A stretch of DNA of 63,251 nt, filler included, from Thraustochytrium aureum (taxonomy: Eukaryota): the NCBI GenBank assembly GCA_012862495.1. It is 5 parts of 4 records of this genome, joined end to end, with 100 filler letters (N's around TTAATTAATTAA, not from the genome) between each part and the next. Parts side by side here need not be neighbours in the genome. Positions count along the whole stretch, not along the records: positions 52,519 to 61,626 come from BLSG01000082.1; 4 more parts are not named here. One strand, given 5' to 3'. Made by a program: the position numbers and the translations under genes. Under the pieces are notes generated by a model. The model worked only from the letters and a program-made list of their open reading frames with translations. It had not been told where the DNA came from and made no database searches. Positions 12,101-62,648 of the stretch are shown here, in pieces. Positions within the stretch are counted from its first letter, which is position 1; the number at the start of each line of letters is the position of its first letter.

Positions 12101-12689
12101 CTCCACGTGCTTCGCGACCTCACCAAGGACGACAGCCCCATTAAAATGGTGGAGATGGAGCGCTTGTACCACTCGTGCCGGAATAACAAGGCTGTTGTGT
12201 ATGAGTCGATGAGCATTCTCAAAGAGATCTGGTCGCACGCCAAGACGCAANNNNNNNNNNNNNNNNNNNNNNNNNNNNNNNNNNNNNNNNNNNNNNNNNN
12301 NNNNNNNNNNNNNNNNNNNNNNNNNNNNNNNNNNNNNNNNNNNNNNNNNNNNNNNNNNNNNNNNNNNNNNNAAAGAGATCTGGTCGCACGCCAAGACGCA
12401 AGACACGATGATGAAGATACTGGCCATCGTGGACAGGTTTCTGGACGGGGACATCCTGAACGGCGACGACGAGATCCTCTCCGACACCCTCAAGTGGCTT
12501 CACATGATTGAGACTACTTTGGACCCCTACTCGAACGCGACGCCGCTCAAGGTGCTGCTCAAGGTCTGCCACCGCGCAGAGAGCCTGCAAGGCCAGACAA
12601 TCGTGCCGCTCGTTGAGATATTTTACGATGAGACCGTATTTGACCACCGCGCCACGTTTGCCTCCTACATCGCGCGCCACGCCTCGTGA
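9197..12689 (+). CDS. Large hypothetical protein (~1110 aa), possible split PH/GRAM-like domain and helical C-terminus
   Basis: Long open frame from ATG 9197. The 30 nt before the 12251-12371 gap are repeated after it, so the frame continues ...KEIWSHAKTQDTMMKILAIVDRF... to TGA 12689. Confidence 0.75.
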
Positions 12690-21278: not shown

Positions 21279-21444
21279 CGGCTCAACTCGCGATCAGACT
21301 AGCAGCGGTCGTTTGCCCGCAGCGAAGCAGCCCCAGCCCGTCGTCGCAGCCACTTTCTCGCCTGCGGGTGCGCCTTCGTCGTCGTAGTAGGTGACTTGCT
21401 NNNNNNNNNNNNNNNNNNNNNNNNNNNNNNNNNNNNNNNNNNNN

Positions 21445-21456
21445 TTAATTAATTAA
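21445..21456. other. Artificial scaffold linker TTAATTAATTAA flanked by Ns
   Basis: The identical 12-mer between N runs occurs four times and gives stops in all six frames. Confidence 0.97.
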
Positions 21457-21500
21457 NNNNNNNNNNNNNNNNNNNNNNNNNNNNNNNNNNNNNNNNNNNN

Positions 21501-37116: not shown

Positions 37117-37160
37117 NNNNNNNNNNNNNNNNNNNNNNNNNNNNNNNNNNNNNNNNNNNN

Positions 37161-37172
37161 TTAATTAATTAA
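37161..37172. other. Artificial scaffold linker TTAATTAATTAA
   Basis: Same 12-mer between N runs. Confidence 0.97.
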
Positions 37173-37216
37173 NNNNNNNNNNNNNNNNNNNNNNNNNNNN
37201 NNNNNNNNNNNNNNNN

Positions 37217-52299: not shown

Positions 52300-52462
52300 G
52301 CGGTCTCCGTCAATCAACCTGCGTCAAGATCGTGGCGCGCAATTCACGCGCGCCCCAACAACCCTTCCCTCGCCCCCTCCCCCCCCTTGTGTCTCGTTTC
52401 GTGTCAGCCGCGAGCTCGNNNNNNNNNNNNNNNNNNNNNNNNNNNNNNNNNNNNNNNNNNNN

Positions 52463-52474
52463 TTAATTAATTAA
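52463..52474. other. Artificial scaffold linker TTAATTAATTAA
   Basis: Same 12-mer between N runs. Confidence 0.97.
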
Positions 52475-52518
52475 NNNNNNNNNNNNNNNNNNNNNNNNNN
52501 NNNNNNNNNNNNNNNNNN

Positions 52519-54441
52519 GCCAAATCCGAGAAACCGGGCAAGGCTCGCCCGGCCCCGCCAGGCAGGTTGGTGGTCGAGGCAAGCCCTGAGAACAACCAAG
52601 AGGACGGCCAAGGCGAGCAAGACGGCCCTGAGAGCGAGCAAGCGGAGAGCGAGGGAGACGAGGACGTCATCGAGAGCGCCGGGGACGTCAGCCAAGACGG
52701 GCCGGACAGCTCGCAAGTCCAGGAGGGCGCTGAGGTTGCGCCGATCCACATCTCGCTCAAGGACGTAGAGCACGACTTTTCCGGCCTCGTGGAGCGCTCG
52801 CGCACAATCCTGGCAAAGCCGGGAGTCAACTTTTTCTATCTTCAGCTCCTCAATGGCGGGTTTCTGACCATGACCAAGGGCTGGATCTGCAATGTCCGTG
52901 ACATGGCCAACGTGCTCGAGCGCACGCTCTTTGTGTGCACCGACCAAGAAGCTTTCGACGGGCTCAGCGAGTTTGCCCGGACTGAGGGCTTGCAGCTCAA
53001 CCTGTACCTCCAAGTTTACGAGACCCCCAAGGTGCTCCGCTACGGCCAGCTGACCTACTACTTTTTCATGCTCTTCCGCGCCTCGATGCTTCACACGATG
53101 GTGGAGAACCGGCTCAGCTTGCTTCTGACCGAGGCGGACGCCACGTGGTTCCAGGACCTCACTGGCTACCTGGAGAAGACCATCGAGGCCTCGACGGACA
53201 TGGTCACCGTGAACGACGACCTCCGCAAAAAGACGTCGCTCAACGGCGGCTTCCTCTGGCTGCGGCCCACCGAGACAACGCGCAAGGTGGTCGGGAGCTT
53301 GTACAAGACGCTGAACGACCGGCTGAAGCAACTGGAGAGCACGGGGAAATCGTACGTGGGCCAGAGCGGCAACGAGCAGTTCATGTTTGAGGCCATCATC
53401 AAGCGCATGAACGAGGACCCGAACCAAAAGTCAGTCAACATCGTGTACCTCAACACCGAGCTCTTCGCGCCCGGCCAGTGGTACCGGTCCAAGTACGCGA
53501 AGCGCGGCCTCTCCCCGTACGTGGTGCTCAACAACTGGCTCCGCGGCCAGGCCGGCAAGATCAAGCGGGCCAAACAGTGGGGCCACTGGTTCCTCAACAA
53601 CGACGATGCCACGTGCAAGAAGAGGAACCTCCCCGCCGTCTTTTCGGCCGCGGACCTCGCGGTCGACTCTCTGCGCGACTGGAGCCCCCTGCTCGACGTT
53701 GCGCTGAGCTTTCCTAGCAAGGACCTTGTCCTCATGCTCGTCAGCGCAGAGAATGTGCAGGTTGCTCTGAGTTGGGCATGCAGCGTGAAGGGCCTTGGCA
53801 ACGTGCTGGACAAGACCCTCTTCGTGTGCACTGATGCGGAAGCCTGCGGTGCGATGAGCGGGTTTTCGGCGTTGCCGATCAAGCTCTTCCAGGACCCGGC
53901 ACCTCTCCCCGCCGACCCAGTTTACTACAAGCTCGCAATCGTGCAGCTCCTGCTCGCGCGCGGCAAGTCTGTGCTCGTTACCAAGCCGGCCGCGACCTGG
54001 TCTGCCGACCCGTTCGAGTACATTCTCTCGCACGCCATGGCCAGCGCCGACATTGTGACCCTGGAGAACAGCCAGAGCAACCCGCGCCTTGTGGACACCG
54101 CGTTTGCCCTGTTCCGCCCGACCGTGGATACGTTCAAGGTGACGAGTCGCGCTGTCCTCGTGGTGCAAAAGTCCATCGTTACGCTCAAGAAGGCGCCGGC
54201 TGAAGCTGCCGCGTTTGAGATTGGCATCCAGGACACCGACTTCGATGCCTCCGGCGAACCGGTTGAGCTTGCGCAACTCGCGCTCCCGACGCTGTCAGCG
54301 ACCAAGAGCCCAGACGGCGTGGGGGAGCCCGACCTGAAGGGCTTGCCGGTAGCGCTGTGGAACAAGATGAACGGCGAGGTCGGCGCCAAGGCGGTGGGGC
54401 TGTGGCGGCTCGGCGACGATCGCTCGTCTTGCGCTGCATAG
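52519..54441 (+). CDS. Nucleotide-diphospho-sugar transferase (GT77-like) with two tandem domains; 5' truncated
   Basis: Domain 1: MT..WICN, TLFVCTD, YG...Y, LLLTEADATWFQD, LNGGFLWLRPT, NEQ, F.PG.WY, NNWL.G..GKIKRAK.WGHWF. Domain 2 repeats WACSV..VLDKTLFVCTD and FALFRPT. Confidence 0.85.
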   Translation, partial: AKSEKPGKARPAPPGRLVVEASPENNQEDGQGEQDGPESEQAESEGDEDVIESAGDVSQDGPDSSQVQEGAEVAPIHISLKDVEHDFSGLVERSRTILAKPGVNFFYLQLLNGGFLTMTKGWICNVRDMANVLERTLFVCTDQEAFDGLSEFARTEGLQLNLYLQVYETPKVLRYGQLTYYFFMLFRASMLHTMVENRLSLLLTEADATWFQDLTGYLEKTIEASTDMVTVNDDLRKKTSLNGGFLWLRPTETTRKVVGSLYKTLNDRLKQLESTGKSYVGQSGNEQFMFEAIIKRMNEDPNQKSVNIVYLNTELFAPGQWYRSKYAKRGLSPYVVLNNWLRGQAGKIKRAKQWGHWFLNNDDATCKKRNLPAVFSAADLAVDSLRDWSPLLDVALSFPSKDLVLMLVSAENVQVALSWACSVKGLGNVLDKTLFVCTDAEACGAMSGFSALPIKLFQDPAPLPADPVYYKLAIVQLLLARGKSVLVTKPAATWSADPFEYILSHAMASADIVTLENSQSNPRLVDTAFALFRPTVDTFKVTSRAVLVVQKSIVTLKKAPAEAAAFEIGIQDTDFDASGEPVELAQLALPTLSATKSPDGVGEPDLKGLPVALWNKMNGEVGAKAVGLWRLGDDRSSCAA

Positions 54442-54580
54442 CCTTGCGGCGCTCGCCTTGCCCAAGTGCAGAACCGGCACGCCAGCCAGCCGTCCTGCGG
54501 CGGCGCAATGCAGAAAACAAAACGAACCAACGTTGACACTTTAGTTGAACTAGCTAGTTGCGCAGAGCCCTCTGGCGGCC

Positions 54581-57500
54581 CTAAGAGGGAAGGGCAGCGG
54601 GTCCGCGGCCTTGGCGGCGTTGGTCCGTGTACATCGGGTTGGAGCACTCGAGAAACTCCTCCTCTTGGCCCTCACCCGCCCCGCCGAGGCTCTTCGAAAA
54701 GCAGATCAAGTCGACACCTGGCCTTGCGAAGCTGTCCTCCTCAAAGCCAAGCGCGCGGTGGAACTCGACGGGGACGGCGTACCCGCGCGGAATCATAACG
54801 CGTACGAACTGGCACTCCCTGCCTCGCGCAAGCGCAAAAACTTGCCGTACAGACGGCGGCCGATGCCCTGGCGCCGCGCCTGCGGCAACACTGCGCAGGC
54901 CGCAACGAGCCCGATCGAGCATGGGCGCGGGCCGCCGTTCTGCAGCTTGCCACAGAGATAGCCGTCGATTTCGCCGTCCGAGTTGCGCGACACAATCGCA
55001 AACTCGCAGGTGTCGTCCCAGAGTTTGCGCGTGTGCTCCGGGATCCAGTGCGGGGTCGCGTTCGGGTCTGGCTTGCCCTGCGNNNNNNNNNNNNNNNNNN
55101 NNNNNNNNNNNNNNNNNNNNNNNNNNNNNNNNNNNNNNNNNNNNNNNNNNNNNNNNNNNNNNNNNNNNNNNNNNNNNNNNNNNNNNNNNNNNNNNNNNNN
55201 NNNNNNNNNNNNNNNNNNNNNNNNNNNNNNNNNNNNNNNNNNNNNNNNNNNNNNNNNNNNNNNNNNNNNNNNNNNNNNNNNNNNNNNNNNNNNNNNNNNN
55301 NNNNNNNAGGCTTACGCCGAAGTGGACGCGGTTGACAGACTTGCGCCGCTTGGAAAAGACCGACTTGAGGATTCCCTTCTTCGCGTGCGACCCCGACGAC
55401 TCGTTGCTGGCCACCGTGGACACGGAGGGGCGCGCGGAGATGGAGGGGCGGAAATGATTGGCGTGGCCAGCGGCGTGCCCGCTTCCATTCGAGCCGTAGC
55501 GGCCGCGCGAGTTCGCTGGCTCTCTCAAGTCTGAACCCGGGGCGGTCGAGGCGCTGGCCGTTCTTTGGCTGGGGCCCGGCTCGTGGGCGTGGCTGGTGTC
55601 GGCCTCGCCGTGTTTGCCTTGCAGCTCGTCGATCTTGTACTGGACGCGATAAATCCACTGCATGCGCAACTCATCGCTGAAGGTCGCAAAGGTGAATTCG
55701 CGAGGGTCGGCTCGCGAGCGGCCCTTTTTCTCCCAGGCCGTCGTGTAGATGGTGAAGCAGAACAACGTGTCGGAGACCTGGTGCACGCTCTCGATAGAGA
55801 GAGTCCCCGCCGGCTCTTTGCGGATCTGGGACTTGCTGTTTAGCTTGACCACTTCCAAGCGCTTCTCGTTGCCCTCCTCGTACGTCTGGACGATCTCGCT
55901 CGCCCTGATGTCTAGCGTGCACCAGCGCGGTTTCCAGGGCTTTTGCGGGTTGCGCGAGTTTTCCTTCTTTACGAATAGATGACCCGAGTGGTTGAGCATG
56001 AGCGCCTCCCCGGCCCGGCTCAGGTACTCGTTCATCGTCTCCGCGTCTTGCTTGGCAATCTCCTCGTTCTTGCGCTTGTTGAGCTTGAGCTTTTGCTTGT
56101 TGGTCATCCGCTTGCGAAGCACCTCCACCATCCACCCGCTCTCAAAGGTATACTCTACTCTGTCCGCAGGGCGCTTGCGCAACTCGCTGCCGTGGGACTT
56201 GCACTTGATAATAAAGTTGGACTTGACCAGCTCGTCGAAATCGGTGTCCACGCTCTCGGTGGGAATTGCGAGCGGGAAAATGGCCTTGATCGTGCGCAGG
56301 GTGAACACCTCGCCGATGATGGCAGCCACCTTGATGATGAGCTGCTGGGTAAGCGACATTTTGTCGATGATGGAGCCCACCATGCTCTCCATGGAAAGCG
56401 GAATGGGCAGGTCGTGCCGTTTTCGGCGTTCCTCAAACTCGTTCGAGGGGAAGAAGAGCTCCGGCCCGGGCGAAGTGCGCTTGGCGATCAAGCCCGCGTC
56501 CAGAAACGTCCGAACGGCGTCCGAGACGTAGAGGGGGTTGCCCTTTGTCTTGCGCCGCAGGAAGGCGACGAGCTCGTCGGGGACGCGGTCGACGTTTGCA
56601 AAATTGCAAATGATATCCTTCGTGTCGGCTGTCGACGGGTGGAGCTCAAGGTAGGTGACGACTGAGCTCGCCTTCATCGCCTCGTGCACCAGAATGCTGG
56701 TCTCGACATCGTCGAACTGCGAGACGCCGCCCTTGAGCTGCGACTTGAGAAGCGAGGTGGACTTGTGCGCGGGGCGGAAGACCGAGACGCGGTTGCTTCC
56801 CCCGCTCGCAGCCCCTCCCACGTTGTCGATGACGCGGCGCTCGATGCGGATCAGGCGGTGGAGGAGAATGATGAGAATGCTAGACCTGGTCCAGTTCTCG
56901 GCGAGCTCCTGGAACACGAGCCAGGAGAAGGTGTCCATGTAGTGGCTCTCGTCCACGACGAGCACGACNNNNNNNNNNNNNNNNNNNNNNNNNNNNNNNN
57001 NNNNNNNNNNNNNNNNNNNNNNNNNNNNNNNNNNNNNNNNNNNNNNNNNNNNNNNNNNNNNNNNNNNNNNNNNNNNNNNNNNNNNNNNNNNNNNNNNNNN
57101 NNNNNNNNNNNNNNNNNNNNNNNNNNNNNNNNNNNNNNNNNNNNNNNNNNNNNNNNNNNNNNNNNNNNNNNNNNNNNNNNNNNNNNNNNNNNNNCCCTCG
57201 GCATACCATCAAACAGGTTCTCGCTGCTTACTCCGAACATGGAGGTCAGGTTCTTCACGCGGCTCACTTTGCTGCCCGCAGCAGGGGTCTGGCCGAGGCT
57301 CGTCGCAGGGGTCGCAGACCGCAAACCGTCTGCGGAGGCGCCCACCACATTCTTCGACTTTGCGATCTTGCGTGTCTTCTTCGTGGCCTTTTTGGCGACG
57401 TCCGGGCCTGGGGGCTGCGGCGGGGCGGCGTCGGCCCCGCCGAGGCCGTCGCTCGGCTCTTCGAACTGCGTCATCAGGATCTTGTTGAGCTTGTAGAGGT

Positions 57501-60111
57501 CGTCAACGGAGAGGTTTCTGTCTGCCCGCGCCCCGTGCGCGCTCGCTGCGGCGAGGGGTGCGGCGGCGGCGACGGCCTCGCGCAGCTGCTCCTCTTTCGA
57601 AGCGCTTGACTCGGGCGTCGATCCCTGGGTTTCCAGGTCGGATTCTGGCGAGATGCTGAGAAGGGAATTGATCGGGTGCTCCCAGATCGCAAAGGGGCGC
57701 GCGTTGCGCCCAGTCTCGAAGGGGTTTCCCCGCCCGTAGCCAAGGAGCACCTCTTCGTCGAGGCTCTCGGTCTCGCTGAGCAGAAAGGACTCGACGAGGC
57801 GCGACTTGCCTACGCCGTGGTCGCCGTCCAAGAGGACGGTTTTGCCCCCCTTCCCTGACGCGACCTCGTCATACGCTCGAGCCAGGCAGTCGCGCACGTA
57901 CGCAGCCGAGCGGAGCTCTTGGTCGGCTTGGTCGGCGGCGTCAGGCGCGTAGCCTCGCGGTGTGCTGTACTGCACGAGAAGCAGGTTTATCCGGCCGAGG
58001 CTCCAATCGTGCGCGATCGTGTTGAGGAGCTGCGAGGGCCGGAGAGTGACGCGCTCCGCGCCGCGCATCCACACGAGCTCGAAGAGGGAGTAGTCCTCTC
58101 CGGCCTCTTTGGTGACCAAGCCCTTGCTGACGGCCTTGGCGAGGACGACTTTGAGCATGTCGTGCACTTCCTGACTGACTCCTCGAGAGACGCGGTGACG
58201 CTGGTCTTTTGCTCGTCGACAGAGGGCCCGTGGCGGCCGCTCTGCGTCACCGCGCGAGGAAAGAAGGTGAAGACCACCAGTTTGCTGGCCTCCCGCGAGG
58301 CAGACCTCCGCGAGGCCGACTTGCGCGAGGCCGACTTGCGCGATCCGTTGGCGAGGAAGCTGGACGTGGCGGCTACAAGCTTGAGATCGTGGCTTTCCGC
58401 CACAGCCGCGCCGCTGCTCTCGCTGCTCGTGCTCGCCACCGGGGTGCGCCCCCGTCGAGCATCAGCGCGGCGGCCCAAGAAGCCGACGCTGTTCATCGCC
58501 TGGACCTGGCGCTCCTCAATGCGCTTCATGTCGTTGGGGTTGGAGACGACAAGCTTTGTGCCGCGGCGGCGCGTCTTCTGGCGGTACTTTGGCGACTGCG
58601 AGTTGAGAATCCGGCCGTTCTTCTTGGAGATGCTCGTCAAGTGCGACTGGTGCATGCTGTGTGGGTCGGAGCTGGTGCCTATTGCCGCGATTTGGTAGCA
58701 CTGCACGGGCTCGCGCTTGCCCTTGACGGCGATTGTGATGGGAATGAACTCGAACACGGTGTTTTCCGCGCCGGTCTTGGTGGAGCGGTCCATGAGGAAA
58801 TTGGACGACAGTGTCTTCGCGGTGCCCATGAGGCGCGCGGCGAGGTTGACGGTGTCCCCAATGACAGAGTACTCGCGGCGGTTGCCCGCGGCGTGGCCGA
58901 TGATCCCGCAGAAGGCGAGGCCCGTCGAGATGCCTACCGAGCCTTTCAGCCGGTACTTGCCAAGCATCCAGAGGATCTTGAGCGCTGAGAGGATGCCGCG
59001 CAGCGGGTCGTCCTCGTGCGCGATGGGTGGGAGCCCGAAGACGGCGATCAGGGTCGAGCCCTTGCGTCGAGAGGCACTTGTTGATCGTGCCCTCGTAGCC
59101 CAGGAGGATGCCCTGGATCTCGTAGAACACCTGCTCTAACTTTTGCGAGTTTTGGCCCGTGCCGAGCTCCTCCGCGTCGAGGCCAAGGTCGACGAAGAGG
59201 GTCGACACGATACGCAGCTCGGGGGCCCAAAACTCGTCGTTGGTCTGCACAAGGTACGGCATGACCGCGTTGGGGACGTACTTCCAGAGCTTGCGCTCCG
59301 TTTCGTTGTTGCTGGGCACGGTGCGGTCGAAGGTCCGCCATGGCACGCGGTCCGAGGCCTTGAAGGACCTCACCGTGACCGTCTTGGCGTTAGATTTGAC
59401 CGGAGCGAAGGGAACAAAGTGCTCGCCGACCATGTCCCAGATTGCGCGGCTCACGACCACCTCGCCCTTTTTGGCCATTTTTTCGCTTTCGATGGCCTCC
59501 ATGAGCGCGGGCCCAAGCGCGACGTACTCGAACCTCTCGCGCTGGATTTGGTCTGCGTTGCCCCCGAGGTACATGATGTGGAGCAGGCCAATGCCAAGTC
59601 CTAGTTTGGCCTCCAGCTCGCCCGAAGCGATCCCGCCAGATTCCTTCTTGGGGTTTGACGGAACAGTGACGATGTCCTCGTACTCGCTGTCCTTGGCGTA
59701 GACGGAAAATTTGAAGCCTTTGAGCTGCTCCTGGATGTCTACCGCGCACTGCACTGCGCGCTGCACGCGCAGCTCGTAGTCGCGCGGGTCGTTCGGGTCT
59801 ACCTCGGGCCACAGCGCGAGCATGGCGTCGCCGGCGAACTTGAGCACGTCTCCGCCGGCCCGCGTCGTCAGCTTGACCAGCTGGGTCACGAACTTGTTCA
59901 AGTTGGTTGAGAGGTCCTCTAGCCCGTTGGGGCCCAGCTCGCAGAGCGTCTCTGTCAAGCTAGTAAACCCTGCCACGTCTGCGAACAGGCACACGGTCTG
60001 CAAGGTGCTTGCATCCGGCTTGGAGGTCCCGTTCGGCTGTCGTTTGCTCTCTGCGACGGCCTTGGCCACCACGGCCGGCAAGTACAGCTGGAGGCTCTGA
60101 AAGTCTCTCAT
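54581..60111 (-). CDS. Soluble adenylyl cyclase (ADCY10/sAC-type, two class III cyclase domains) + RA-like + STAND P-loop ATPase + PH + probable C-terminal GNAT; several frameshifts and two gaps
   Basis: C1: FADVAGFT, VLKFAGDA. C2: FVDL, GTINK..(V)DDKG..FGLPP.AHEDDP.R, GISTG.AFCG, RREYSVIGDTVNLAARLM. Walker A GDHGVGKS, Walker B VVDESHYMD, GNPLY. PH: GHLFVK..WKPRW..F.F...ELRMQWI. Frameshifts near 59065, 58175 and 54838. Confidence 0.88.
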
Positions 60112-60442
60112 CGCTCACAGCGGCAGGGCGGCGTCCACGCCGTCGTATCGCCACTCGCAGCGCGCACGGCCCGCGCGGTGGAGGTCGCGCCGCAGTGCAC
60201 GGACCGCCCCGCAGGCGAGCCAGCCGAAGGGCCGGCCAGTCAGCGCGCAAGCCCGCAATCACGCAAGCAAGCAGGGCGCGATCGAGAGCTCAACGTGCCC
60301 GCCCGCGCGCCCGCCCGCCCGCCTGCCAGCCCGTGCCAGCCGCTGCTCGGGTCTGCCCGCTTCCAGCGCGAGCCCGCGAAGCTCGCAAATGCAGCCCTGC
60401 TCCTTCTGGTCGCCCGCGAAAGCAGGCCCAAACGCCACTTCA

Positions 60443-60536
60443 AATCGCGCAATAATCGCGCAATAATCGCCCATAATCGCCCATAATCGCTCAATAATCG
60501 TCCAATAATCGACCGATAATCGACCAATAATCGACC
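60443..60536. repeat. Nine-copy 10-11 bp tandem array (CAATAATCGNN) upstream of the cyclase gene
   Basis: AATCG starts at 60443, 60454, 60465, 60475, 60485, 60496, 60507, 60518 and 60529. Confidence 0.92.
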
Positions 60537-61070
60537 GCGACGTCCCTCTGAGTGCCCGGCCGCCCTCCAGTATGGATTGTGAGGAGAACCACCTCCCCCT
60601 CCTGCAAAGCGCGTGCCTTTGCGCGCCGTGCACAACTGCGAAGAGAGGCAAAAACGCGGCGCGCTCTCGCACTCGCGCCCTCGCGCTGTCCCCTCACACC
60701 CTCTCCCTCTCCCAGTTCGTTCCCCTCCCTATGTCCAGCGTCAAGTTCTCGCCTTCGAGTTCTCCCTCTCTTGAAAGCGTGTGTGTGAGTGCGTGAGCGC
60801 CTGCCTCTTTTCCAGTTCAGAAAGGCTTTCTTCGTTTCCTTCCTGCCTCCTCAATTCGAGTGGCCGCCGCCATTTTGTGGCGTGAGGAGCTGACCGAGTG
60901 GAGGACTGCGGGCGCTCAGCGCGGGACCAAGCGGTGTCTGCTGCCGCGGAGAATGCGCCGCACATGCGCGAAGGGGCTATCCAGCGGCAGCGCAGCCCGG
61001 CGAAACAGGCTCCAGTTCGCGCCTCTGGGGCGCCGCGCATGTTGCGCCGGCGCGGCTCGCGAGCCCGTGA

Positions 61071-61108
61071 CGGACGGACGGATGGACGGACGGACGGACG
61101 GACGGACG
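61071..61108. repeat. (GGAC)n tetranucleotide microsatellite; related (GGCA)/(GGCT)/(GCCT)n runs at ~1251-1279, 23486-23510, 25836-25855, 26392-26416
   Basis: Directly visible tetranucleotide runs in intergenic DNA. Confidence 0.9.
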
Positions 61109-61670
61109 CCAGCCCGATCGCGCGTGCCGGAGAAGCCGATGCCGCGCGTGAGGGCCGCCAGCCTGCGACGAGGCGCCTTGCGCTTGTGCCCGTGCAAGTT
61201 GCCGCTTGCACGGGTACGCCGTCCACCGGCACGAACACATTTGGATGATTGCTTGGAGCGATCTTGATCAAGAGCGACACGTTCAGCGCGCGGGCGCTGA
61301 CTGGTCGAGTCTGAGGGAGTCGCTGCCAGTGGGCGACGCTTCCTCCTGCAACTTGCTCGTTCAGGTGAAAGAGGCGGAGCGAGCTCCTCGCTGGCTGGCG
61401 CATCGGAAATAGGCATCGGCTGTCCCAACTCGACGCTCTGCAGTGCGAGCTGATCGCCTGGCAAAACTGCGACTGCCCCGACAAACAAGTCAGCACAGCT
61501 CCGGCCACACGCCTGCCCCACCATCACCCACCTGCAGAGCAGGCACGCGGGCAAGGAACGCGCTAGCAGTCCCCGAACGCAAGCGCGAGCGCAAGGCAAC
61601 GAGTCACCGAGCTCAAGGAAAGCTGCNNNNNNNNNNNNNNNNNNNNNNNNNNNNNNNNNNNNNNNNNNNN

Positions 61671-61682
61671 TTAATTAATTAA
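61671..61682. other. Artificial scaffold linker TTAATTAATTAA
   Basis: Same 12-mer between N runs. Confidence 0.97.
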
Positions 61683-61727
61683 NNNNNNNNNNNNNNNNNN
61701 NNNNNNNNNNNNNNNNNNNNNNNNNNT

Positions 61728-62648
61728 GTTGACACTGAGCGCGAGGCTCATCGGGCCGCACGCAAGGCCCATTTGGACAGGGTCCTTCCCTGGCCAACTG
61801 CGCAAGGCATTCGGTATAGTGCAGTGGACGGAGACATCTGGAGCAGGCCCTTTGAGGACAGCAAGTACCAGTGGCTTCCCACGGATGTCCAGGTCGCGAG
61901 CGATGGCTGGCGCTGCGAATGGCTCGGGTACCTGAACAACCTGGACGATCGTCGGCTCGAAAGCGCTCTCCGCGACCTGCTCGCCGCGGCGCTTCCGGCG
62001 GTTGACGTTGTATATCGCGCGGCCGTGGAGCGCGAAAACATGCACGTCAACGTCACCTCGCTGCGCGGCGCGCGGCTGCAAGTGTACCCCAAAGTGGTGG
62101 ACTACGAGCTCGCGCCTGGGCAAACCTACGAGGGCGTGTGGCACGTGGAGGGCATGAGCCACGAGAGCATCTTCGCGACCGTCCTCTTTATCGCAGACCG
62201 CGACGAGACCATCGAGGGCGGCGACATCCTCTTCAAGCGCAGCATGACGACTCGCGAGAAATATCACTGGGCAGAAGACGTGTTGGAGAACTACATGGAG
62301 CAACTGCCCAATCCCACCAGCGTTTGGTTCAACAACGCAGTCCAGCCGCTCGGCTGCGTGGGCACGCCCGCGGGGCGCCTGGTCGTGTTCCCCAACTCGC
62401 ACATCCACAAAGTCACCAAGATGGTCAACACGAGCGCCACAGAAGCCGCGCTCCGGCGCATCTTTGTTTTCTTCTTGGTTGACCCGAACGAGCGGGTGCT
62501 GTCGACGAGCGACGTTCCGCGTCAGCAGGGCGTGATGCCGCTCGAAAAGGCCAAGGAACACCGCTTGGCGCTCATGGCGGAGCGCAAACTGCACAAGGAC
62601 AACTTCAACGAGGGTCTCGAGCGCCAGCTCAGCCTCTGTGAGCACTAA
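61728..62648 (+). CDS. DUF4246-like putative Fe(II)/2-oxoglutarate dioxygenase-fold protein; 5' truncated
   Basis: SKYQWLPTDV, YLNNL, LQVYPKVVDYEL.P, WHVEGM..E.I.AT, T..GRLVVFPN..IHKV, RRIFVFFLVDP..RVLST..VP.QQ, A.EHR..LM.ER match the recalled DUF4246 pattern. Confidence 0.8.
   Translation, partial: VDTEREAHRAARKAHLDRVLPWPTAQGIRYSAVDGDIWSRPFEDSKYQWLPTDVQVASDGWRCEWLGYLNNLDDRRLESALRDLLAAALPAVDVVYRAAVERENMHVNVTSLRGARLQVYPKVVDYELAPGQTYEGVWHVEGMSHESIFATVLFIADRDETIEGGDILFKRSMTTREKYHWAEDVLENYMEQLPNPTSVWFNNAVQPLGCVGTPAGRLVVFPNSHIHKVTKMVNTSATEAALRRIFVFFLVDPNERVLSTSDVPRQQGVMPLEKAKEHRLALMAERKLHKDNFNEGLERQLSLCEH

Follow-up and report, generated by a model that had tools for sequence, protein, structure and literature searches.

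A Thraustochytrium aureum gene joins a soluble-type adenylyl cyclase to PH and GNAT domains

Soluble-type adenylyl cyclases are metabolic sensors. Full-length mammalian sAC (ADCY10) lacks membrane spans, begins with two tandem class III cyclase domains and continues into a long regulatory C-terminal part that includes a P-loop module; it is not known to contain a PH or GNAT domain. Here we analysed a 63,251-base stretch of DNA from Thraustochytrium aureum (assembly GCA_012862495.1; 62.6% G+C; a pseudomolecule of joined scaffolds), hereafter the window, and describe a gene on its minus strand, at positions 54581 to 60111, whose product shares the sAC layout and, unlike sAC, carries a PH and a GNAT domain, as do its orthologs. 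According to one study, the extra domains of full-length sAC are still functionally uncharacterised (PMC12802110).

Bacterial STAND proteins with the order cyclase-AAA_16-TPR are a second point of comparison. Their core aligns over 25-28% of an ortholog of the window protein from Hondaea fermentalgiana, with E values down to 7e-71, whereas the bacterial proteins measure ~1250-1400 residues and end in TPR repeats. That sAC-type STAND relatives usually end in this way had been stated in a first-pass annotation of the window, and many of the bacterial cyclase-AAA_16 proteins among the 120 matches listed for the Hondaea query do carry TPR families.

The gene and its assembly defects

The gene, with an ATG at 60111 and a stop at 54581-54583, lies on a 9.1-kb scaffold (52519-61626, BLSG01000082.1) that contains two internal runs of N, and is colinear with its orthologs. 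At its 3′ end, the GNAT domain spans 54686-55327 on the minus strand, from its first strand, beta1 (VHFGVS, 55310-55327), across an assembly gap to its last strand, ICFSKSL, and is divided between two reading frames. Frame A (54796-55080) reads QGKPDPNATPHWIPEHTRKLWDDTCEFAIVSRNSDGEIDGYLCGKLQNGGPRPCSIGLVAACAVLPQARRQGIGRRLYGKF and includes LWDDTCEFAIVSRNSDGEIDGYLCGKLQNGGPRPCSIGLVAACAVLPQARRQGIGRRLYGKF, after which the reading leaves the frame and meets a stop; frame B (54584-54850), one base over, reads through FALARGRECQFVRVMIPRGYAVPVEFHRALGFEEDS to the stop at 54581-54583. By itself, frame A clears the 20.7-bit cut-off of the Pfam model Acetyltransf_1 (PF00583), scoring 27.7 bits (E 3.6e-6); frame B by itself matches nothing in Pfam, and BLASTP matches to orthologs reach 3e-22 for frame A and 7e-19 for frame B. 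The GNAT motifs that the first-pass annotation had read on the minus strand are thus borne out, both by the Acetyltransf_1 search and by the strong fold similarity of an ortholog model described below (Z up to 18.6). Its placement of the domain at 54690-55082 held for the C-terminal three quarters only, since beta1 lies at 55310-55327, beyond the gap.

To examine the broken frames we used contigs from four runs, which contain 69-87% of the sampled words of the locus: a DNA-type run from one organism (X1), and a set of three small runs from a second organism and a single study (X2-X4), for which an RNA origin is a guess. All frame changes in the gene coincide with an insertion or deletion seen in these contigs or with a wrong gap length. 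The gap inside the GNAT domain (gap 1, 55083-55307, 225 N) is bridged by 65 letters in X2, X3 and X4, with a shorter flank of 62-255 letters, and also in X1, where one flank is just 27 letters long; the true fill encodes the GNAT helices alpha1-alpha2. The 160-base difference from the assembled length shifts the frame by one, from that of the PH domain (codon low ends 2 mod 3) to frame A of the GNAT domain (1 mod 3), so a 65-nucleotide fill joins the PH frame to frame A. The 30 gap letters adjoining 55308 were read in 4/4 runs, and their sole difference, at the base nearest 55308, is synonymous. Their minus-strand reading continues after VHFGVS as L-Q-Q-M-S-A-D-D-F-Q-A and matches the M-T-P-E-A-F-x-A-I helix of the orthologs, the first helix of the GNAT fold. 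Neither the stop nor the separate start that the first-pass annotation had considered for the gap occurs in the 30 of 65 letters read. Because beta1 stands upstream of the gap, in the open frame of the PH domain and its linker, the case for the fusion goes beyond the unseen gap letters.

Within the GNAT domain, one base is missing at 54836-54840, a run of five A on the plus strand and of five T on the minus strand, where the first-pass annotation had joined the frames by adding a base. An extra base is present there in 2/2 covering runs (an A after 54835 in X1, a G after 54838 in X2); the X3 contig begins at 54839, and X4 has a depth of zero at this site. Both versions yield KF-FALARG, with a Phe-Phe pair, and where the window's two GNAT halves meet, the GNAT tails of five orthologs have K/R-F/Y-F-A/G. 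A 23-nucleotide GT..AG mini-intron at the same place would also join the frames. We rejected it: the orthologs retain the residues it would delete, KFFALCRGKGC, and the contigs have a one-base insertion there and no joint.

The remaining defects lie further upstream in the gene. Gap 2 (56969-57194, 226 N) is bridged by 236 letters in X1, X3 and X4, with a shorter flank of 170-255 letters, and this fill restores the frame. A single-base deletion at 58167 is repaired by a G added after this position in X2, X3 and X4, the X1 contig stopping at 58167. Two more, at 59064-59069, break the cyclase open reading frame (ORF) between its two homology domains, C1 and C2, and are filled in 4/4 runs by a T after 59064 and an A after 59069. 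The bases missing after 58167, 59064 and 59069 thus explain three broken cyclase ORFs.

With these corrections the gene from 60111 to 54584 amounts to 5528 - 160 + 10 + 4 = 5382 nucleotides, or 1794 codons (3 x 1794), and its six true-frame pieces total 1687 residues with 0 stops. As to introns, the X1-X4 contigs have no joint inside the gene except at the two N gaps. That the apparent breaks are assembly errors in one intron-less gene of about 1794 residues, with the domain identities given below, is a joint conclusion we regard as hardly open to doubt. The gene is conserved under purifying selection: among 36 substitutions between the corrected ORF and the related contigs, a partial sample beside 39 further differences not listed, 31 lie at third codon positions and 29 leave the amino acid unchanged, and in the frame-B part of the GNAT domain 4/6 are synonymous, the other two being V to I and Y to F.

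A reading in which the frameshift and the gap are real would make the GNAT a separate neighbouring gene, a decayed pseudogene or the product of a scaffold mis-join. The assembly itself gives it some footing, with broken frames and 225 N between the parts, but independent contigs remove both the frameshift and the gap defect. The first GNAT strand, moreover, stands in the PH-linker ORF ahead of the gap and the next 10 codons continue it, seven orthologs are fused, and the substitutions are mostly synonymous; we consider a separate gene extremely improbable. This draft thus mis-assembles the locus, placing six defects in a single gene, and gene models derived from it will split or truncate the protein. 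Among the protein-search matches, no protein of the window's own species spans gap 1.

Domain architecture and relatives

The C1 cyclase homology domain occupies 59392-60000 on the minus strand (approximate borders, from alignment), and its LFADVAGFT and KFAGDA motifs are invariant in 7/7 aligned sequences; the long C1 ORF, read through its frameshift, gave no Pfam match at E <= 0.1. The C2 domain, at 58689-58940 on the same strand, matches PF00211 (E 1e-5; 25.7 bits, cut-off 21.9), and its motif GNRREYSVIGDTVNLAARLM is likewise kept in 7/7 aligned sequences. We take the C1 and C2 motifs to supply the two Asp residues that bind metal and the Asn and Arg that act on the transition state. In P0003 and P0277, two of the orthologs introduced below, Guanylate_cyc (PF00211) matches two stretches, giving tandem class III cyclase domains at the N-terminus.

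A STAND-type P-loop ATPase of the AAA_16 family follows at 57544-57885 on the minus strand (PF13191, E 8.7e-7; 30.0 bits, slightly below the cut-off of 32.6). It contains the Walker A sequence GDHGVGKS, and the Walker B sequence VLVVDES stands at about 56945-56965, directly past gap 2. Orthologs score 32.0-43.7 bits with this family; 7/8 scanned rows pass (33.2-43.7), and P0277 (32.0) falls slightly short. In the linker between cyclase and ATPase, a 15-nucleotide tandem repeat of 3.4 copies (58293-58343) encodes SRKSA-SRKSA-SRRSA and is not kept in the orthologs; its R-K/R-S-A-S units resemble protein kinase A sites.

The PH domain lies at 55637-55990 on the minus strand (PF00169, E 2e-5; 25.5 bits, cut-off 25.1) and scores 33-44 bits in the orthologs. 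A basic K...K-P-R pattern at its beta1-beta2 is kept in 7/7 sequences, and we take it to be a phosphoinositide-binding signature. Pfam scans of the window pieces and of eight ortholog rows found no TPR family, the C-terminus being occupied by PH and GNAT, and scans of the window pieces and orthologs found no cyclic-nucleotide-binding (cNMP_binding) family. Just ahead of the first GNAT strand stands a basic R-R-K-S site (55337-55348), which is RRRS in P0123, RKLS in P0003 and RKVT in P0005. On a speculative view, it could be a kinase site tying cyclic AMP (cAMP) signalling to the GNAT domain.

The order cyclase, AAA_16, PH and GNAT recurs in seven other proteins of 1576-1731 residues (P0003, P0004, P0005, P0274, P0277, P0278 and P0129). 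The cyclase-ATPase-PH-GNAT fusion that the first-pass annotation had inferred is thus supported by the 65-nucleotide gap that joins the frames, by the 30 letters that continue the ORF and by the same order in seven full-length proteins from other organisms. The sole named relative is the Hondaea fermentalgiana protein, entered as 'Adenylate cyclase type 10' (1725 residues; PF00211, PF13191, PF00169 and PF00583), which was found as the single longer match to the 95-residue frame-A piece. Hondaea is a thraustochytrid (Labyrinthulomycetes, Stramenopiles).

A search with the Hondaea protein returned three more proteins of full architecture (P0004, P0005 and P0006) and, after them, only bacterial cyclase-AAA_16 proteins; PF00583 occurs in 4/120 matches listed for this query, all four of them protist orthologs. 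Among 1.84 billion representative sequences, a profile of the GNAT tails further found P0123 (a fragment containing PH and GNAT), P0124-P0128 and P0129 (1593 residues), and a cluster look-up with a third search added P0274 (1731 residues), P0277 (1680 residues) and P0278 (1576 residues). Our own Pfam scans verified the four domains in P0003, P0004, P0005, P0006/P0274, P0277 and P0129, those of P0278 coming from a precomputed list, and Acetyltransf_1 scores 29-42 bits in the orthologs. Identity to the window pieces is 43-51% for P0003, P0004, P0005 and P0274, which belong to a Hondaea-like clade, and ~31% for P0277 and P0129. When 71 GNAT rows were placed in a quick maximum-likelihood tree, from which the two window fragments were excluded, the 10 fused-family rows stood on one side of a branch with a Shimodaira-Hasegawa-like approximate likelihood-ratio (SH-aLRT) support of 99.

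One member of the fused family, P0128, is a free-standing GNAT of 178 residues whose acetyl-CoA loop is degenerate and which has Tyr where the family has His; the quick tree places it with P0129. It may be a split-off paralogue or a relic of the gene that became fused.

Full-text literature searches found nothing on a cyclase-GNAT fusion or on this protein. The architecture is already deposited, as the Hondaea entry lists its Pfam domains, and is apparently undiscussed as far as our literature search reaches.

The GNAT active site and its possible roles

A profile of the family, searched against PDB sequences, found Naa20 first (Chaetomium 6zmp_A, 7e-11; human hNAA20, 3-4e-9), followed by Bacillus subtilis YqjY (1.3e-8) and then by Naa10/Ard1. 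For structure we modelled the tail of P0123, which shares 59% identity with frame A of the window, the window's own alpha1-alpha2 lying in the gap. Built from a 73-row alignment, the model has a mean predicted local distance difference test (pLDDT) of 90.5 and a predicted template-modelling score (pTM) of 0.85, and shows the strand and helix order of the GNAT fold (beta1, alpha1-alpha2, beta2-4, alpha3, beta5, alpha4, beta6-7). In a fold search with it, 970 of 999 aligned chains had a Z of at least 8. The top matches were Naa10 (Z 18.6; root-mean-square deviation (rmsd) 3.0 over 152 residues), PA2271 (Z 18.5) and YqjY (Z 18.5; rmsd 2.2 over 150 residues), and N-terminal acetyltransferases (NATs) made up the majority of the top 50. 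An earlier AlphaFold model, built on just 6 aligned rows, reached a pLDDT of 56 and was of low quality, and its Foldseek matches agree with those of the later model.

The acetyl-CoA pyrophosphate-binding loop, R-R-Q-G-I-G (54859-54876, minus strand), fits the consensus Gln/Arg-x-x-Gly-x-Gly/Ala given in a review of such enzymes, which also describes an inactive GNAT domain, the central domain of Eis, without the P-loop Gln/Arg (PMC4964394). Across the subfamily the first R is kept in 11/11 rows, the first G in 9/11, and the last position is G or A in 10/11. The GNAT domain is accordingly predicted to bind acetyl-CoA via this intact loop.

In several functional residues the domain departs from Naa20, its best sequence match among solved structures. 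In hNAA20, residues His73, Asn116 and the catalytic Tyr123 have been shown to matter, His73 and Thr75 read residue 2 of the substrate, and the substitution N116A lowers hNatB activity by about 90% (PMC7494357). By our count in the alignment from the PDB profile, the window has Leu for His73, Ala for Thr75, Tyr for Asn116 and His for Tyr123. The last is the His of the motif AFHRxLGF (54758-54760, minus strand). It is kept in 9/11 subfamily rows, with Tyr in 1/11, and the same column holds His in 34 and Tyr in 19 of the 61 nearest other GNATs; so common a residue is no sign of decay. To judge from these alignments, the domain is a NAT-like GNAT and not a Naa20, with an active-site make-up of its own.

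Beyond the fold, an acidic tail (54629-54700) that closes in N-P-M-Y (54629-54640, minus strand, from alignment) is present with its NP(L/M) in 6/6 members of the Hondaea-like, thraustochytrid-like clade and absent from more distant members. The region is disordered in the ortholog model (pLDDT ~50), and its N-P-(L/M)-x may be a short linear binding motif.

The explanation we rank first combines the gene described above with an active acetyltransferase placed by the PH domain beside the cyclase, and for this full account belief and doubt are evenly balanced. The GNAT would be an acetyl-CoA-dependent, NAT-like protein N-acetyltransferase, and the PH domain would likely keep it at the membrane site of cAMP synthesis. 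A single polypeptide would then have two outputs: it would make cAMP, and it would acetylate itself or a neighbouring protein to a degree set by the supply of acetyl-CoA. Three sequence features favour catalysis, namely a His that is common among related GNATs, the unbroken loop and the conservation of the helices on the acceptor side; alpha1-alpha2, the acceptor-site region of GNATs, is strongly conserved in the family.

Several points weigh against this account. The C-terminal position in STAND proteins is normally that of a sensor. The Asn that caps alpha4 is present in 55/61 nearest GNATs and in only 1/11 subfamily rows, the window having Tyr, and the beta4 position, that of His73, is Tyr or His in 38/61 nearest GNATs as against L, V, I or S in 11/11 subfamily rows. 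No substrate can be named for the proposed acetyltransferase. On the side of the gene model, 30 of the 65 letters of gap 1 and 0 of the 236 of gap 2 were seen, which leaves a formal chance of a stop among the other letters; the RNA nature of X2-X4 is a guess only, and X1 may be the very sample used for the window assembly.

Part of this evidence suits another explanation, in which the GNAT is a non-catalytic acyl-CoA sensor that, together with the PH domain, replaces the TPR arm, so that acetyl-CoA or another acyl-CoA, once bound, would switch the ATPase module and thereby gate cAMP synthesis; PH and GNAT would jointly sense a lipid and an acyl-CoA. GNAT folds that only bind acetyl-CoA exist, and PanZ has been used as an acetyl-CoA biosensor (bioRxiv 10.1101/2023.12.31.573774). 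The order of effector (cyclase), NOD (AAA_16) and C-terminal module is the STAND layout, with TPR in that place in the bacterial relatives; the alpha4-cap Asn and the beta4 Tyr/His are missing from a domain that retains its P-loop, and His73, Asn116 and Tyr123 of hNAA20 are all unmatched in the window. GNATs with an intact P-loop are, however, mostly enzymes; His at the Tyr123 column is found in 34/61 nearest GNATs, the acceptor-side helices are well conserved, and contact between GNAT and cyclase would have to be assumed. A complex prediction pairing the Hondaea cyclase (residues 1-480) with its GNAT (1535-1725) scored 0.00 and gave no verdict. We treat the sensor as the main alternative, possible but less likely than the catalytic account. 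Its more specific form, in which acetyl-CoA or another acyl-CoA bound to a silent or slow GNAT directly gates the sAC-type cyclase, PH-GNAT acting as the STAND ligand sensor, strikes us as somewhat unlikely.

An active enzyme could also act on a small molecule, such as an amine, an amino acid or a polyamine, in place of a protein. Structural matches at Z ~18.5 include PA2271 and YqjY, whose substrate is a small molecule or not known, and in NCBIfam, where no family reaches its cut-off, the weak matches below it are all to small-molecule acetyltransferases. The best sequence matches among solved structures are nevertheless Naa20, then Naa10 and Ard1, most top structural matches are NATs, and a signalling scaffold with a PH domain would suggest a protein target. 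We consider a small-molecule substrate improbable and place the protein acetyltransferase first.

In this family a PH domain and a fold that binds acetyl-CoA take the place of the repeats that usually act as sensor, an arrangement kept in at least eight lineages and a concrete candidate for a link between acetyl-CoA and cAMP. The fusion, which thraustochytrid relatives share, would likely tie cAMP signalling to acetyl-CoA; thraustochytrids are known for fatty-acid production (PMC11951076). Were the sensor explanation to hold, cAMP would report the status of central carbon and lipid precursors in oil-accumulating thraustochytrids, and the protein would be the first adenylyl cyclase under direct acetyl-CoA control.

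The surrounding window and comparison with known systems

The window is a string of unordered scaffolds, and genes that flank a linker are not genomic neighbours. Its linkers, of the form N44-TTAATTAATTAA-N44 with stops in all frames, lie at 21401-21500, 37117-37216, 52419-52518 and 61627-61726. On the scaffold of the cyclase-GNAT gene, a convergent neighbour on the plus strand (52567-54441) encodes 624 residues with a glycosyltransferase-type Nucleotid_trans domain (PF03407, E 1.9e-25) and an internal sequence repeat. Its contigs end at 54527-54537 and the cyclase contig begins at 54508; the 3′ ends of the two genes may overlap by about 20-30 nucleotides. Inside the neighbour gene, an X1 joint skips 53083-53241, and loose ends at 53038 (4/4 runs) and 53082 (X3 and X4) appear; together these suggest a variant or paralogous copy.

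Upstream of the cyclase-GNAT gene, X2-X4 cover 52519-60158 and nothing of 60159-61626, where the DNA run X1 continues. The end of their coverage at 60158 is a weak hint, from a single study, of a transcript end. The same upstream region carries further small indels in X1 relative to the window (+C at 60168, +C at 60721, -4 at 60831 and +CTTGCG at 61176). On the next scaffold, an ORF at 61773-62648 (plus strand) matches DUF4246 (E 7.3e-37) and has its 5′ side cut by the linker. Elsewhere in the window, the 121-N gap at 12251-12371 has 30 identical bases on both flanks (AAAGAGATCTGGTCGCACGCCAAGACGCAA); it is probably an artefact of contig ends that overlap there.

Among known acetyltransferases, Naa20, Naa10, Ard1, Naa50 and RimI share with the window GNAT the beta3-beta4-P-loop-alpha3-beta5-alpha4 core, and hNAA20 (6vp9_A) matches the ortholog model at Z 17.1. 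Naa20, by contrast, is a free subunit of ~180 residues that works with Naa25, whereas the domain described here is the C-terminal part of proteins of 1576-1794 residues, and the ortholog model has an additional helix before the last strand. YqjY (PDB 1mk4) is the tightest structural match, at 24% identity, and differs in being a stand-alone, probable acetyltransferase of bacteria.

Two further systems resemble this one in function. The mycobacterial cAMP-regulated protein lysine acetyltransferases of the Rv0998 type, named in the review cited above (PMC4964394), also link cAMP and a GNAT in one polypeptide. In those enzymes a domain that binds cAMP governs the GNAT; here the enzyme that makes cAMP is itself fused to a GNAT. 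PanZ is a GNAT fold that reads acetyl-CoA and does not transfer the acetyl group; it is a small bacterial protein, and we liken the window GNAT to it by function only.

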